Program-made: the position numbers and the translations under genes
The notes under the pieces: model-generated
Databases searched by the model: none
Told to the model about the DNA's origin: nothing
Seen by the model: the letters and a program-made list of their open reading frames with translations, nothing else
Shown: one piece after another, positions 52,831 through 58,648 of the stretch
How the letters are laid out: every line of letters begins with the position of its first letter
Position numbering within the stretch: the stretch's first letter is position 1
From: a virus
Lineage: Duplodnaviria; Caudoviricetes
Strand: one strand, 5' to 3'
Length of the DNA: 64,000 nt
IMG/VR virus record: IMGVR_UViG_3300027898_000001

Positions 52831-55749
52831 GTGGCTAAACTAGCAAAATCTGCCAAACTTAAAAATGCTGATGCGTCTGAATTAGCTGCGTTTGATCCAT
52901 ACGCGCATTTAGACAAATCAATCGACTCGATGGAAAAACAGTTTGAACTGAGTGCTATGTCGTTTGATAAGAACGAACCTAGATTCAGTACAGGCTTACT
53001 ATCACTAAACATTATGCTGGCCAATGGCCTTCTTGGTGGTGGTTGGTATACCTGCTTCGGTGGTGAACAGTCGTGTAAGTGCCTTGTTGGTGATAGCTTA
53101 GTTGTAACAGATAGTGGTTTGTTGCGACTAGATGAAATATATTTGGAATCATCTAAATCTACGTTAGAAGGTTTCAACGATATTACACCTATTACTGTCG
53201 AATCTCATAAAGGTAAACGACAAGCTACTAAAGTTTACATAGGTAAAGGTTCTACATATCGTATCAAGACAAAACTAGGTGATGTTGTAGAAGGTTTGCC
53301 GGATCACAAGTTATGGAGTCTTGTTGACGGTAAATTTACGTGGACACGTTTAGATAAGCTAAAACAAGGTGCTTATGTTCCAAAGAAAATAGGTACTAAT
53401 ATATATGCCAAAGAGTCTGCAAAGTTTAATTTTAAACCAGATCTTGACTATATGTTTAAAATGACTGATAGTTTACGCGGTCTTGGTGATGTACATTATC
53501 CTAGTGAGATTTCAGAAAATCTCGCTGAAATTTTTGGCTGGTTAGTGTCAGAAGGTTCTCCGGATAACAGATTTCATAACAAGAATCCTTATGCACTTAA
53601 TCGCTTTAATAAACTCGTAAAACGTGTGTTTGGACAACCTTGCAAAACGCTTACAGATAATTATGCAATAGCACATGGCTTAGTATTAAGATTTTTTAGT
53701 GAGTATCTTGGTAATGTAACATCTGCTGAGCGATTTACTCCTGTAAGTGTACGCTGTTCTCCTAAGAATATACAAACAGCTTACCTGCGTTCGTTATTTG
53801 AAGGTGATGGTGCCGCTATTAATTCAAAGAACGGTACAGTTACTCTTACAACGCTTAGTAGAAAACTTGCGGAAGAAACTAAGTACATGCTAGAAAACAT
53901 GGGCATGCTTTGTTATATTAGAGAACGCACGACGTGGGCTACTAATGGTAGTGAATCTCAGATTGAAAAAGAAGCCTATGTTTTATCTGTACATCCAGAT
54001 TTCGCACATGTGTTTGAATCTGAAGTTGGTTTTTTATCCAATAGAAAGAATGAAATATTACGAACACTTATTGAACGCAGCTTAAATAGTAAATCTGTAA
54101 ACTCTCGTGTTGGTCCTACGAACACGTTACCGGGCGCGGAGCTTGCGGTACATTTAATAAATATTGTGAATCGTATAAGTCCAAATCTTGGAATATCCTG
54201 CAGCAGTAGTGGTCAGAGTTCTGTATTCTCCAATATTTCAACAAAAGACTTGCGTAGTGGTAAATCAGGATTAACAAGATGTACACTATCTCGTATTTTA
54301 AATTGTATTGTCGAATATAAGTTAGAAGATTCTCTACCAGACGAAGGTAAAGAATTAATTAAAACTTTGAAACACTACACAAACTATTATTGGACAACTG
54401 TAGACTACTCTAAACGTACTAGACTTAAAAAACTTGTGTACGATCTAAATGTAGAAGATACGCACTCCTATCATGTTAATGGTATGATTAGCCACAACTC
54501 CACCCTGGCAATGACCATTCTAAGTAGTATCATGTTGCAGAAAGATTTTCGTGGCAAGGCTGCGTATTTCGACTACGAAGGTAGTTCGCAGGCAGAGTAC
54601 ATTGAAAACATCATGCGTAGTATGGGCATCAAAGACAACATTGAAAGTGTGTTTGGTGTACAAGATGAAGAAACAGGTGATTGGATTGTTAAACCACGTG
54701 TACGTTATTACACTCCAGATACTGGTGAGAAGTTCTTCCACTACTTAGCCAAGTTAGAAAAACTATTACCGGATAAAGTCAAGAAAGGCGGACAGTGGTA
54801 TTTCGTGTATGAAAATAACCGCGACAATCAGAAAGCCCTTAAAGGCCGTTATGATAAAGCGTTATTTAGTAAGTACAACCAATTCTACATTCCTGCTCCT
54901 GACGGCACCATTCAAGCCATCATACTGACAGACTCTTATCCAGCAATGTTACCCGATAGTGCAGATAAGAAAGAAGAAGGTGATAAAGGCTTGGCTTTGC
55001 AAGCGCGTATGTTTGCTGATGGTTTGAAACGTGTTAAGAGTGCTATGCGTAGAAAGCGTATTGTAGTTCTAGGCGTTAACCAACTACGTAAAGTACCGAT
55101 GGCAATGTATGGACCTTCTGAGACTGAGCCATGCGGCGATGCTTTGAAGTACTTCAGCGATGTTCGTTTCCGCAATAGTTCTGTTTCTATTCCACACGGC
55201 AAAGGCATGTTGGAAGAAGAAGATAGTGTTATTGGTGACGGTGTTGATACGTACCGCTATATCAAAATTCGTACACACAAAAACAAACTCGGTGGTGTGC
55301 CAAACCAAGAAGTTACTTTACGTATTGTAGTAGAGAACGCTAATGGTACGGCTACTGGTTTCTGTCGTGTTTGGGATGCGTACACCTATTTGAAGCTAAC
55401 GGGTCAGATTGGTGGTCAGCGCAACAAGATTAAATTCTTGGAAGGCTTTAATGTCGTCAAGAAAGATCCAAAGACACAGATCAGCAAAGAAGTTTACGTG
55501 GACTTTAAAAATCCATTTGCTGGAACAGTTGTTAATTGGTTAGATTTTAAAACTCTGATTGAAGGACACAAGGATGATATTAAAGCACTATGTAAAAAAC
55601 TGAAAATGTCTAAGCCTGTCATGTTGCGCAGTTTCTTGGAAAATCAATGCTCTGATGGTTTGGGCTTCACTTACATGAAAGATGCAAAACGTGCCAAATC
55701 TGCGGAGAAAAGATCGGCAGATAAGTCTGATGCAGATGATGAAGAATAG
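52831..55749 (+). CDS. recA: RecA/UvsX-like recombinase with intein (499 aa spliced)
   Basis: FSTGLLSLNIMLANG, split P-loop GGEQSCK|ST, YFDYEGS, TDSYPAM, VNQLR, GDALKYFSDVR, KNKLG. Confidence 0.85.
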   Translation: MAKLAKSAKLKNADASELAAFDPYAHLDKSIDSMEKQFELSAMSFDKNEPRFSTGLLSLNIMLANGLLGGGWYTCFGGEQSCKCLVGDSLVVTDSGLLRLDEIYLESSKSTLEGFNDITPITVESHKGKRQATKVYIGKGSTYRIKTKLGDVVEGLPDHKLWSLVDGKFTWTRLDKLKQGAYVPKKIGTNIYAKESAKFNFKPDLDYMFKMTDSLRGLGDVHYPSEISENLAEIFGWLVSEGSPDNRFHNKNPYALNRFNKLVKRVFGQPCKTLTDNYAIAHGLVLRFFSEYLGNVTSAERFTPVSVRCSPKNIQTAYLRSLFEGDGAAINSKNGTVTLTTLSRKLAEETKYMLENMGMLCYIRERTTWATNGSESQIEKEAYVLSVHPDFAHVFESEVGFLSNRKNEILRTLIERSLNSKSVNSRVGPTNTLPGAELAVHLINIVNRISPNLGISCSSSGQSSVFSNISTKDLRSGKSGLTRCTLSRILNCIVEYKLEDSLPDEGKELIKTLKHYTNYYWTTVDYSKRTRLKKLVYDLNVEDTHSYHVNGMISHNSTLAMTILSSIMLQKDFRGKAAYFDYEGSSQAEYIENIMRSMGIKDNIESVFGVQDEETGDWIVKPRVRYYTPDTGEKFFHYLAKLEKLLPDKVKKGGQWYFVYENNRDNQKALKGRYDKALFSKYNQFYIPAPDGTIQAIILTDSYPAMLPDSADKKEEGDKGLALQARMFADGLKRVKSAMRRKRIVVLGVNQLRKVPMAMYGPSETEPCGDALKYFSDVRFRNSSVSIPHGKGMLEEEDSVIGDGVDTYRYIKIRTHKNKLGGVPNQEVTLRIVVENANGTATGFCRVWDAYTYLKLTGQIGGQRNKIKFLEGFNVVKKDPKTQISKEVYVDFKNPFAGTVVNWLDFKTLIEGHKDDIKALCKKLKMSKPVMLRSFLENQCSDGLGFTYMKDAKRAKSAEKRSADKSDADDEE
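53080..54498 (+). mobile_element. intein (473 aa) with LAGLIDADG homing endonuclease, in the P-loop
   Basis: Cys1 CLVGDSLV, C-terminal ISHN, +1 Ser; IFGWLVSEG and YLRSLFEGDG motifs. Confidence 0.92.
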
Positions 55750-55756
55750 TACGTTT

Positions 55757-55786
55757 AACGCTCCTTTTTAGGGGCGTTTTTTTTTT
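55757..55786 (+). terminator. intrinsic terminator
   Basis: AACGCTCCT-TTTT-AGGGGCGTT followed by a long T run. Confidence 0.85.
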
Positions 55787-55788
55787 AT

Positions 55789-55924
55789 TTGCACTTGTTT
55801 TGAAAATGTGATATAATGAGTTGTGAAAGAAATATCTATCCTGTCTGCACTTTGTAGGTATATCACATAGGCAAGATTGAAATGTTTGTAAATTCCACTA
55901 AATATCACTTTCGAGGTTTATATG
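55789..55924 (+). promoter_or_regulatory. repeat cassette copy 5
   Basis: TTGCAC-N17-TATAAT(55812); 54 bp identical to copy 1; GAGG RBS, ATG 55922. Confidence 0.85.
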
Positions 55925-56323
55925 TATTCACATTATTCTGATAACCCTACTCGCACAAATCGTGCAGTTCAAATCTATATTATTTTAATGGGTTATGCAA
56001 CACGTGCCGAAACGCTGACGTACAAAGACCTAGCTGGTCATATAGGTTATGATGGCGCAGGTGTGTTTGCACAAACACTTGATATGATTCAAAACTGGTG
56101 CCAACATCACCAATTGCCTTTACTAACCGCAATTGTTGTGAACTCTGCTACAGGTGAGCCTGGTGATGGTTTACTCGCAGAAGATTTCTCAGAAGAACAA
56201 AACAAAGTGTTTGTATATAACTGGTATGGCATTACAGTACCAACTGCTCAAAACTTTGAAGATTTTTGGCGCATCGAGCAACAACGCCGTGCAAACAATG
56301 TAGTAGAACCAGAAGTAGCTTAA
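55922..56323 (+). CDS. winged-helix-like hypothetical protein
   Basis: LTYKDLAGHIG...LPLLTAIVVN..TGEPGDG. Confidence 0.7.
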   Translation: MYSHYSDNPTRTNRAVQIYIILMGYATRAETLTYKDLAGHIGYDGAGVFAQTLDMIQNWCQHHQLPLLTAIVVNSATGEPGDGLLAEDFSEEQNKVFVYNWYGITVPTAQNFEDFWRIEQQRRANNVVEPEVA

Positions 56324-56336
56324 CAGTAAATAAATA

Positions 56337-56356
56337 GGAGTAGCAATTGCTACTCC
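56337..56356. other. perfect 20-bp palindrome (terminator-like or operator)
   Basis: GGAGTAGCAATTGCTACTCC. Confidence 0.6.
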
Positions 56357-56405
56357 AACTAAATGTCATTAAATGTTCCACTAAATTTCACTAAAGGTAA
56401 ATATC

Positions 56406-58199
56406 ATGCAACAATTAGCTATCACTGCACCACAATACCCATTATCACACACTGTATTCCAAGCCCTGCACTACTCTGATGTTTATACAAGCGCAGATAT
56501 GTTATTAGATTATCTCCTTGCGCATAACATTGATACTATGTTCGGTGTTCCAGGTGGTGCTATCGAACCTCTGTTGAATGCTGTATCTCGCAATCAAAAA
56601 GCATTTGGTCCTATCCGTTCCGTTATTGCTCGCCACGAAACTGGTGCAGCATTCATGGCAGATGGTTACTATCGTGAAACCCGCAAACTCGCAGTTGTGT
56701 TCAGCACTACTGGTCCAGGTACTACCAATTTAATTACTGGTGTTGCAAGCGCGTATTCTGATAATATTCCAATGCTTATCATCACTGCACAAACCCCATT
56801 ACCAAAATTCGGCCGTCGTGCTTTACAAGAAAGTAGTTGTACTTCTGTAGACACTGTGGCAATGTTCCAAAGTATTACACATTACAACACTTTGGTTTCA
56901 CATGCAGACCAACTTGAACACAAACTACGTGCGGCATTGTTAGCTGCTTATCAAAATAAAGGTCCAGTACACTTGAGTATTCCAAGTGATGTGCTTCGCC
57001 AAGATACCTGCAAACACGCTATCAAACGTGTCACGAACAATCACGACCATTTTGTTGATACGGATGCACTAAAAGAATTGTTAAATATCTTAGAGCAAGA
57101 TAGCTCTATTGCTGTGATTGTAGGTGAAGGTTGCCACGAAGCTAGTCAAGAGATTATGGAGTTTTTGAATTTAACAGATTTACCTTTTATGTCTACACCA
57201 ATAGGTAAATCGTTTGTTGATGAAACACATAAGAATTATTTAGGTGTTTACGGATTTGCTGGACACGCTTCTGCTAAACAATTACTCCAATCTACTCGCG
57301 TTGTTACAGTTATCGCAATTGGTTGCACTTTAGATGAGTTGAGTACGTCTGGTTGGAGTCCTGATTTGTTGAACTACAAATTGGTCCACATTGATAGTTG
57401 TGCAGAACATTTCACACGCTCTGGTATGGCTAAGTTGCAAGTGTACGGCAATATCAAGTACGTGTTTGAGTGTATGAATACTGAGGTTGAAAATCTTATC
57501 GGTGCGGAATTAGCGTGGAGCAATGTTTCAGATAAGACTCAATTAAATGCTTGCGGTGGTTATGCTGAATTGAAAAACTCCAAAGCCTGCACATTACCAA
57601 GTAGCACTATAAAGCCGCAGTATCTTATGCACCGCCTCAGTCACAATCTAGTAGACGATGCTCGTATATTTGTAGATGCTGGTAATAGTTGGGCATGGGC
57701 CACGCACTATCTAACACGCAAGAACAGTGATGGTAAGTATCACATTGCAATGGGCTTCGGCAGTATGGCATGGTCAGTTGGTGCTGCTATAGGTAGCGCG
57801 TTCGCTACAAATGAACCTACTGTTTGTATAGTTGGTGATGGTTCATTCTTAATGTCCTCGCATGAGATAACTGTAGCTGTCCAGCATAATCTTCCCATTG
57901 TGTTTTTAGTTCTGAATGACAGTGCTATGGGTATGGTGATGCACGGACAAAAGCTTGGAGGACAAGAAAGCATCGGCTGGGAATTGAATGTTGTCGATTT
58001 CGCTGCAATAGCAAAAGCAAGTGGGGCGTACGGTACAATTGTACGAACAACAAAAGAATTAGATGCTATCGACCTTAATGTTTTGTTTCTGCGCAACGGT
58101 CCTACATTGATTGATGTGCGCATTGATCGCAATGAAGTACCACCAATGGGTGATCGTATTAAAGGTTTGGCACAACAATCAGCAACTCCAGGAGGTTAA
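56406..58199 (+). CDS. thiamine diphosphate-dependent enzyme, acetolactate synthase large subunit-like
   Basis: FGVPGG, RHETGAAFMADGY (catalytic Glu), TTGPGTTN, ThDP motif GDGSF...LND. Confidence 0.9.
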   Translation: MQQLAITAPQYPLSHTVFQALHYSDVYTSADMLLDYLLAHNIDTMFGVPGGAIEPLLNAVSRNQKAFGPIRSVIARHETGAAFMADGYYRETRKLAVVFSTTGPGTTNLITGVASAYSDNIPMLIITAQTPLPKFGRRALQESSCTSVDTVAMFQSITHYNTLVSHADQLEHKLRAALLAAYQNKGPVHLSIPSDVLRQDTCKHAIKRVTNNHDHFVDTDALKELLNILEQDSSIAVIVGEGCHEASQEIMEFLNLTDLPFMSTPIGKSFVDETHKNYLGVYGFAGHASAKQLLQSTRVVTVIAIGCTLDELSTSGWSPDLLNYKLVHIDSCAEHFTRSGMAKLQVYGNIKYVFECMNTEVENLIGAELAWSNVSDKTQLNACGGYAELKNSKACTLPSSTIKPQYLMHRLSHNLVDDARIFVDAGNSWAWATHYLTRKNSDGKYHIAMGFGSMAWSVGAAIGSAFATNEPTVCIVGDGSFLMSSHEITVAVQHNLPIVFLVLNDSAMGMVMHGQKLGGQESIGWELNVVDFAAIAKASGAYGTIVRTTKELDAIDLNVLFLRNGPTLIDVRIDRNEVPPMGDRIKGLAQQSATPGG

Positions 58200-58201
58200 T
58201 T

Positions 58202-58648
58202 GTGGACGATTTAATCTATTTCAATACAACGGTAGCAGATAAGCCTACTCTTAGTATAAACTTTACGCTGTTCCATTCAATTGCCTCTTGCATTAAGAAC
58301 ATTGAACCTGTCTCTAGTATACCGCGTTTGTTATTGTGGTTAGATAAGCCTGCAATGTTTCGTATTGAGAAAAATTTGTATCGTTCTGAGGCTTTTACTT
58401 TGCCTGCGTCCGAGGTTATTATTATTTACAAGGCACTTCTCGAATTGCTTAACACGCACAAAGAAGGTATTAATGTGAAGGAAGAGTTGGCTACTCTTTT
58501 CGTTGTAGAGATTATGAATATAGCCTCTCTACTGCTGTTCTTTTCTGGTGTCGTTCTTGCAAAATCTCCAATTACTATCGTTCGCCATAGTACGCGAGAA
58601 TCATTAAAATATGACAAAGCATTGTCTAATGTAGTATCATTAAAATAA
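58202..58648 (+). CDS. hypothetical protein
   Basis: GGAGG RBS, GTG start. Confidence 0.65.
   Translation: MDDLIYFNTTVADKPTLSINFTLFHSIASCIKNIEPVSSIPRLLLWLDKPAMFRIEKNLYRSEAFTLPASEVIIIYKALLELLNTHKEGINVKEELATLFVVEIMNIASLLLFFSGVVLAKSPITIVRHSTRESLKYDKALSNVVSLK

Follow-up and report, generated by a model that had tools for sequence, protein, structure and literature searches.

What a large phage does with a gene resembling that of acetolactate synthase (ALS) is the question raised by one stretch of DNA from a Caudoviricetes virus (IMG/VR record IMGVR_UViG_3300027898_000001), of which the 64,000 nucleotides analysed here are referred to as the window. The open reading frame (ORF) concerned occupies positions 56406–58199 on the plus strand, is open, and encodes a protein of 597 amino acids, designated P0001. 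An initial annotation, made from the sequence alone, had described a full-length thiamine diphosphate (ThDP)-dependent enzyme with an intact catalytic glutamate and intact ThDP motifs and had regarded it as an unusual auxiliary metabolic gene carried by a phage; we reached the same view on both points, the enzyme being intact and not a plain IlvB. Beyond this, we consider it fairly probable (roughly 0.6) that P0001 is a catalytically competent, active ThDP-dependent 2-oxo-acid carboligase of a bacterial family that is genetically linked to a conserved module.

P0001 contains three Pfam domains, each scoring above its cut-off: TPP_enzyme_N (PF02776; 133 bits), TPP_enzyme_M (PF00205; 83 bits) and TPP_enzyme_C (PF02775; 113 bits). 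Their order, with an N-terminal PYR domain, a middle domain and a C-terminal PP domain, is that of the three-domain pyruvate oxidase/acetohydroxyacid synthase (POX/AHAS)-type ThDP superfamily. Two motifs further define this superfamily, a ThDP-activating glutamate and the Mg/diphosphate motif GDG-X(24–27)-N(N/D). When P0001 was aligned with Escherichia coli IlvI, E78 (in an RHE motif) coincided with the catalytic glutamate in the RHE of IlvI, and the cofactor motif was located at G477-D478-G479...N504-D505. Both the glutamate and the GDG...N(N/D) motif are invariant across the family to which P0001 belongs.

That family does not correspond to any of the curated ones, as no equivalog model in NCBIfam reached its cut-off with P0001. 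The highest score was obtained with a ScyA-related model (310 bits; cut-off 1000), followed by the AHAS model TIGR00118 (298 bits; cut-off 538). ScyA itself gave 272 bits (cut-off 1020), and membership of the ScyA or ScyA-related families (NF035923 and NF035927) was rejected at scores below one-third of the cut-offs. The AlsS models gave 261 bits (cut-off 510) and 228 bits (cut-off 551).

The simplest proposal for such a gene is that it encodes a plain biosynthetic AHAS (IlvB, IlvI or IlvG) that boosts the supply of branched-chain amino acids during infection. General similarity to AHAS is real (E-value 9.5e-89 on TIGR00118), homologues of P0001 are annotated as 'acetolactate synthase' at source, and viral ALS genes have reportedly been mentioned for prasinoviruses. 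However, every AHAS equivalog model scored far under its cut-off, and the residues that shape the AHAS substrate pocket are replaced in P0001. AHAS enzymes carry an acceptor-site tryptophan (W574 in Arabidopsis thaliana) and an arginine that binds the substrate carboxylate (R377 in A. thaliana); aligned against E. coli IlvI, P0001 has G514 (in MHGQ) in place of the tryptophan of QWQ and leucine (in LDEL) in place of the arginine of FDDR. P0001 also has a five-residue insertion after the QE motif by comparison with IlvI. Neither a small subunit nor ilv genes were seen in the flanks or among the ORFs of the window that were scanned. Further, in five bacterial genomes with a close relative of P0001 a true IlvI and/or IlvG is encoded as well; these score 690–870 bits on the AHAS model, by comparison with approximately 300–327 bits for the relatives. 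Because the same genomes hold these true AHAS enzymes, the family is best classed as a paralogue of AHAS, not as AHAS. The reading as a plain AHAS is thus largely refuted and we regard it as very improbable; the initial annotation had itself named a plain IlvB as the outcome that would undo the idea of a novel substrate, and this outcome does not apply here.

A phylogeny against related enzymes had been suggested at the outset. It was run against IlvI, IlvG, Gcl and IolD, and those other enzymes proposed for it, AlsS, Xsc and ScyA, were compared by their model scores. In the maximum-likelihood tree the family forms a clade separate from the IlvI, IlvG, Gcl and IolD proteins of the same genomes, the identities of which were confirmed, with support of 100; Gcl (L091) and IolD (L130–L132) fall in the outgroup and were rejected as identities for P0001, as was plain IlvB/IlvI given its low TIGR00118 score, the replaced pocket residues and the separate clade. 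A search of 5.8 billion proteins returned more than 100 that are 55–64% identical to P0001 over the full length, with named relatives in Cellvibrio, Thalassocella, Exilibacterium and unclassified Gammaproteobacteria. When species-representative genomes were scanned, 80 bacterial loci across the Gamma- and Betaproteobacteria were recovered, and a scan of metagenomes yielded relatives of 52–65% identity (at most 60% over the full length), many of them on contigs of several hundred kb. P0001 is a bona fide member of a ThDP family of Pseudomonadota that is associated with the module described below.

Branching within the family mostly tracks taxonomy. P0001 pairs with a database protein, P0002 (64% identity), and the pair is sister to all Cellvibrionaceae (SH-aLRT 99), which places the predicted source of the gene in a lineage next to the Cellvibrionaceae; this is probably also the host lineage of the phage. 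In a larger tree a third protein, P0072, joins P0001 and P0002. P0002 (from an 8.3-kb contig) and P0072 (from a 26-kb contig) group with P0001 and not with any named bacterial family, and the amino acid make-up of P0002 is of the AT-rich type (isoleucine 9.3%, lysine 5.2%); the two may be further phage copies. A second and more remote paralogue (37% identity to P0001) was observed in Hahella (L129, on G005:C73) besides the copy in the module, and it had no NCBIfam match at E ≤ 1e-100.

Sulfoacetaldehyde acetyltransferase (Xsc) was assessed separately, as the initial annotation had raised a link to sulfite supply for a phage SqdB. On that proposal P0001 would be an Xsc-like enzyme freeing sulfite, which SqdB needs, and the ThDP gene and an sqdB-like gene do occur in the same phage. 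Assignment to Xsc was taken as a score above the cut-off of TIGR03457 or NF005713. No Xsc model was among the 25 best NCBIfam matches of P0001, and TIGR03457, with its cut-off of 676, gave bacterial members of the family 179–191 bits but the AHAS enzymes of the same genomes 298–334 bits; Xsc was rejected on these grounds. The sqdB-like gene, of the NAD-dependent epimerase/dehydratase type, lies with two TAGT-family glycosyltransferase genes at 5151–8805 on the minus strand. This cassette is approximately 48 kb distant from the ThDP gene, on the opposite strand and with different signals, and because nothing linking the two loci was found the sulfite-supply idea is left unsupported. We give it next to no credence.

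The surroundings of the bacterial relatives were informative. ORFs were called in the 80 loci and clustered, and representatives of the clusters were scanned; the counts that follow refer to genes at most 10 kb away from that of the ThDP enzyme. A protein of approximately 280 amino acids with remote similarity to citryl-CoA lyase is encoded at 65 of the 80 loci and a second such protein at 49; TonB-dependent receptors are likewise present at 65, and 65 loci have a gene of this citrate synthase fold (CS-fold) together with a TonB receptor. Binding-protein-like (SBP-like) genes of PF04392 were found at 49 loci, histidine kinases at 40, REC-PAS-GGDEF-EAL proteins at 34 and a short-chain dehydrogenase/reductase (SDR) resembling butanediol dehydrogenase at 22. 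Cellvibrionaceae loci additionally encode a hybrid kinase with a YfiR domain. One of the CS-fold partners matches the citryl-CoA lyase of Hydrogenobacter (PDB 6hxp), and the other has no sequence match in the PDB. The citrate-synthase signature was absent from all 65 sequences of one CS-fold family and all 49 of the other, and the fold in these partners may have a remodelled active site or may serve a purpose other than catalysis. One of the two families reads GY.RPI...DER where a GxGH...DPR stretch is expected (loci L001–L080, e.g. L002:15193–16918 on the minus strand). As the CS-fold partners lack the signature, the ThDP enzyme is the sole partner of the module with a recognisable active site. 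Literature searches found no published description of this module. It had escaped the initial annotation that P0001 belongs to a distinct bacterial family, as yet uncharacterised, with ties to this module of a receptor and cyclic di-GMP (c-di-GMP) enzymes.

What P0001 might contribute to such a module can be considered from its nearest solved relatives. By sequence BbmA scores best (274 bits), followed by CsmA (239 bits), with AHAS enzymes at approximately 180 bits, and because these two are nearest and BbmA shares with P0001 both the QE insertion and a glycine at the AHAS tryptophan position, a carboligase cycle is to be expected of P0001. By analogy with these enzymes and with AHAS, a 2-oxo acid would first lose CO2 on the ThDP of P0001, and the carbanion so formed would attack another carbonyl compound, yielding an acyloin or an alpha-hydroxy-beta-keto acid; the acceptor pocket would differ from that of AHAS and is expected to be wider. 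The ThDP gene would share a transcript, probably an early one, with the small gene upstream of it, and the phage would then make the product of the module, or a precursor of it, independently of host control. Such a product could feed or jam the receptor and c-di-GMP circuit of the host, or 2-oxo acids could simply be diverted. The substrate class, the product and the physiological role of P0001 are all inferred; a small molecule of the host may be produced by the phage or its normal function disturbed. A more specific proposal, which we put forward as speculative and rather unlikely, is that the phage has captured the synthase of a bacterial system that makes, re-imports and senses a small molecule (through the TonB receptor, a periplasmic sensor and a c-di-GMP output), and that by making the signal of the host during infection it resets c-di-GMP behaviour (biofilm formation or motility) in the infected cell or its neighbours.

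A more mundane possibility is that P0001 acts as a pyruvate sink in the manner of a catabolic ALS, joining pyruvate to pyruvate or to an aldehyde to give products of the acetolactate or acetoin type, so that carbon flow, redox state or pH is shifted and no signalling is involved. The AlsS and pyruvate-oxidase models are near the top of the scores of P0001 (261–263 bits), no small subunit was recognised in the flanks, which would match catabolic ALS, and the SDR at 22 of the 80 bacterial loci resembles an enzyme of butanediol metabolism. Nevertheless the AlsS scores fall far under the cut-offs given above (261 against 510 and 228 against 551 bits); the tight linkage to a TonB receptor, a CS-fold pair and sensors is unlike an acetoin pathway; and no alsD-like decarboxylase was found among the conserved bacterial neighbours. 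We consider a pure pyruvate sink unlikely.

Retention of conserved residues bears on whether P0001 is an enzyme at all in its present setting. Of 59 positions without variation across 86 bacterial members of the family, P0001 has retained 58, and of 148 that are at least 90% conserved it has 135, the latter within the range of 0.88–1.0 given by leaving out each bacterial member in turn. The strictly conserved C-terminal tail (...PPMGDRIKGLA..SATPGG) is also kept. This tail could be explained if P0001 were a decoy acting through protein contacts, replacing or titrating the ThDP subunit of the host in a complex with the CS-fold pair and so turning the module off or on, with catalysis secondary. 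Such a role would fit the capture of the ThDP gene alone, and the CS-fold partners, apparently non-catalytic by signature, would suggest a regulatory function within the complex. However, the preservation of the catalytic glutamate, the cofactor motif and all but one of the 59 invariant residues argues for selection on catalysis; we judge a decoy acting in such a putative complex to be quite improbable, and an active carboligase remains the reading that we favour.

The conclusion that this is a phage gene was drawn from its composition and its flanks. The ThDP gene has a GC content of 0.418 and a GC content at third codon positions (GC3) of 0.323, within the span of 15 other phage genes of the window (GC3 0.28–0.35), as had been claimed initially when the gene was called AT-rich like its neighbours. 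Homologues in Cellvibrionaceae have a GC3 of 0.48–0.78. Upstream on the same strand are phage genes for a sigma factor, a single-stranded DNA-binding protein (SSB) and an intein-bearing UvsX/RecA protein, and downstream is an exonuclease gene; the protein index assigns the window to a contig of approximately 260 kb, and thus to a jumbo phage. An assembly chimera, with bacterial DNA misjoined to a phage contig, might have been suspected since the closest relatives are all bacterial and neither IMG/VR nor the genuine phages of GenBank contain a homologue. Against this stand not only the GC3 of 0.32 and the same-strand phage genes on either side but also a leader repeat common to the ThDP gene and the adjoining phage gene, and a best bacterial identity of just 60%; a chimera is scarcely credible. 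With phage-like GC3 and phage genes on both sides, host contamination of the locus, which the initial annotation had listed as a possible refutation, is excluded. Retention of the conserved positions combined with phage-like codon usage points to an old capture from near the Cellvibrionaceae that has ameliorated to the composition of the phage and would have remained under continued selection for function.

The capture appears to have been selective. No homologue of the phage neighbours was found in the bacterial loci by tblastn, and, as judged from the 64-kb window, the ThDP gene alone was taken up from the module. Seven related jumbo phages in IMG/VR (L135–L141; 221–295 kb) keep the gene order sigma factor–SSB–UvsX and have nothing in common with the window downstream of UvsX. 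A ThDP homologue is absent from the five of these relatives that are at least 99% complete. Scans of IMG/VR with P0001, with the family alignment, with P0002 and with P0072 returned no viral homologue, and the GenBank phage collection gave only matches of at most 28% identity, many of them in records that are named bacterial genomes or short unannotated fragments. ALS-like proteins do occur in phage records, as PHROG 11199, which has no assigned function. Its absence from five complete related jumbo phages, and the lack of any close phage relative in these searches, mark the ThDP gene as accessory and specific to a lineage, within a variable part of the genome.

The variable accessory region starts right after an intrinsic terminator at 55757–55778 on the plus strand (a 9-bp stem followed by a T run), which closes the UvsX-like gene and parts the cassette from the replication and recombination genes. 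The UvsX/RecA-like gene itself (52831–55749) contains an intein with a LAGLIDADG endonuclease domain, and the similarity of the related jumbo phages is confined to the extein parts of its product (residues ~17–100 and 551–946). Just beyond the terminator, at 55788–55817 on the plus strand, is a sigma-70-like sequence with an extended −10 element (TTTGCA, 18 nt, TG-TATAAT; 10 of 12 matches), a candidate early promoter for the host RNA polymerase. It is followed by the first gene of the cassette (55922–56323, plus strand), which encodes 133 amino acids, has no Pfam or PHROG match and is similar to small hypothetical proteins of Pseudomonadota; beside the bacterial ThDP genes no homologue of it was found. 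The 17-nt direct leader repeat shared by this gene and the ThDP gene, TTCCACTAAATWTCACT, is present on the plus strand at 55893–55909, ending 12 nt before the ATG of the 133-amino-acid gene, and again at 56376–56392, ending 13 nt before that of the ThDP gene. There are no further copies in the 64-kb window, and the repeat may act as a translational operator common to both genes or as a promoter-proximal element within the cassette. Between the two genes, at 56337–56356, is a perfect 8-bp hairpin (GGAGTAGC-AATT-GCTACTCC) with no T run on the plus strand, a possible attenuator or processing site. The ThDP gene (56406–58199, plus strand), assigned by domain, family-model, tree and alignment evidence, is next.

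Directly after the ThDP gene, at 58202–58648 on the plus strand, is an ORFan of 148 amino acids with a GTG start. Its Shine–Dalgarno sequence, AGGAGG, lies within the final codons of the ThDP gene, such that the codons for the strictly conserved P-G-G end double as the ribosome-binding sequence of the ORFan (58191–58204); the ORFan is probably translationally coupled to the ThDP gene. It is without a homologue among the 5.8 billion proteins searched, has no Pfam or PHROG match and is not a recognisable AHAS small subunit, although its single-sequence AlphaFold2 fold (predicted local distance difference test, pLDDT, 47) is too poor to judge. The initial annotation had noted that a regulatory small subunit was lacking. 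The flanking ORFs showed no ACT or ALS_ss_C domain nor any other Pfam or PHROG match, which supports that statement, and the poor fold of the ORFan leaves it short of proven. The accompanying statement, that other branched-chain amino acid genes are missing, agreed with our scan of 30 window ORFs (not every small ORF), among which there were none; apart from the ThDP gene, every ORF is too short to encode IlvD.

Several observations weigh against P0001 acting as an active carboligase that serves, during infection, the chemistry of the bacterial module. Carboligase activity of the family is itself predicted from homology. The AlphaFold2 model of P0001 has a pLDDT of 76 and a predicted template modelling score (pTM) of 0.52 with a loose domain arrangement, and its active-site loops (residues 132–143 and 509–526) are of low confidence; Foldseek comparisons with this model gave TM-scores of approximately 0.4 and repeat the ranking by sequence, adding little beyond it. 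By tblastn the window, 64 kb of a phage contig of approximately 260 kb, has no homologue of the conserved bacterial module neighbours, and a lone ThDP enzyme without its partners may not give the same product. With regard to timing, promoter-like sites in the cassette region are no more numerous than expected from shuffled sequence, and the site at 55788–55817 counts as a consensus match only. The early expression that had been claimed for the cassette, in favour of which there is one sigma-70-like promoter right after a strong terminator, is therefore no more than plausible.

Virus-borne ALS-like genes are usually filed as auxiliary genes of amino acid metabolism, and P0001 is not such a gene. 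It is of a known kind, a virus-borne ALS-like metabolic gene, yet comes from an uncharacterised family linked to a module that is widespread and that is predicted to connect a small molecule with an outer-membrane receptor and with c-di-GMP sensing. Compact, soluble and apparently maintained by selection, the single phage gene would offer a convenient handle on the product of this module. If the signalling proposal were true, phages would be tapping a new kind of bacterial small-molecule circuit, and production of the signal by the phage would represent a new chemical class of phage-encoded mimicry of host signals; if P0001 were only a pyruvate sink, it would be a modest addition to phage metabolic genes.

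Among known systems, the agr genes of Clostridioides phage phiCDHM1 are reportedly an example of phage-encoded quorum sensing. P0001 would resemble them only if the signalling proposal holds, as a phage gene for the synthase of an extracellular signal system of the host, and the chemistry and the circuit are wholly different. The AHAS enzymes IlvB, IlvI and IlvG share with P0001 the three-domain fold, the catalytic glutamate, the GDG...N(N/D) motif and the overall length (28% identity to E. coli IlvI); they differ in having the pocket tryptophan and arginine that are glycine and leucine in P0001, in lacking the five-residue insertion and in having a regulatory subunit, of which none was recognised beside P0001. 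The ScyA-related model, as the top-scoring one in NCBIfam, hints at the acyloin-synthase side of the superfamily, although at less than one-third of its cut-off. The bacterial module shares with the phage the ThDP family itself, at 55–64% identity, and differs in that the enzyme has its partners beside it, which the phage window does not. The closest comparison is with BbmA and CsmA (PDB 8x3x, 8xod and 8x3z), titled 'ThDP-dependent HKA synthase' in the PDB, a function known from these titles alone. They also rank first in Foldseek with the P0001 model, and they have no small subunit, just as none was recognised in the flanks of P0001. BbmA has both the five-residue insertion after QE and a glycine at the position of the AHAS tryptophan, G514 of P0001 corresponding to G484 of BbmA, the site of a deposited G484F mutant. 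Identity of P0001 to BbmA and CsmA is nevertheless just approximately 28% over the full length, and the genomic setting with a receptor, a CS-fold pair and c-di-GMP sensors is the P0001 family's own.

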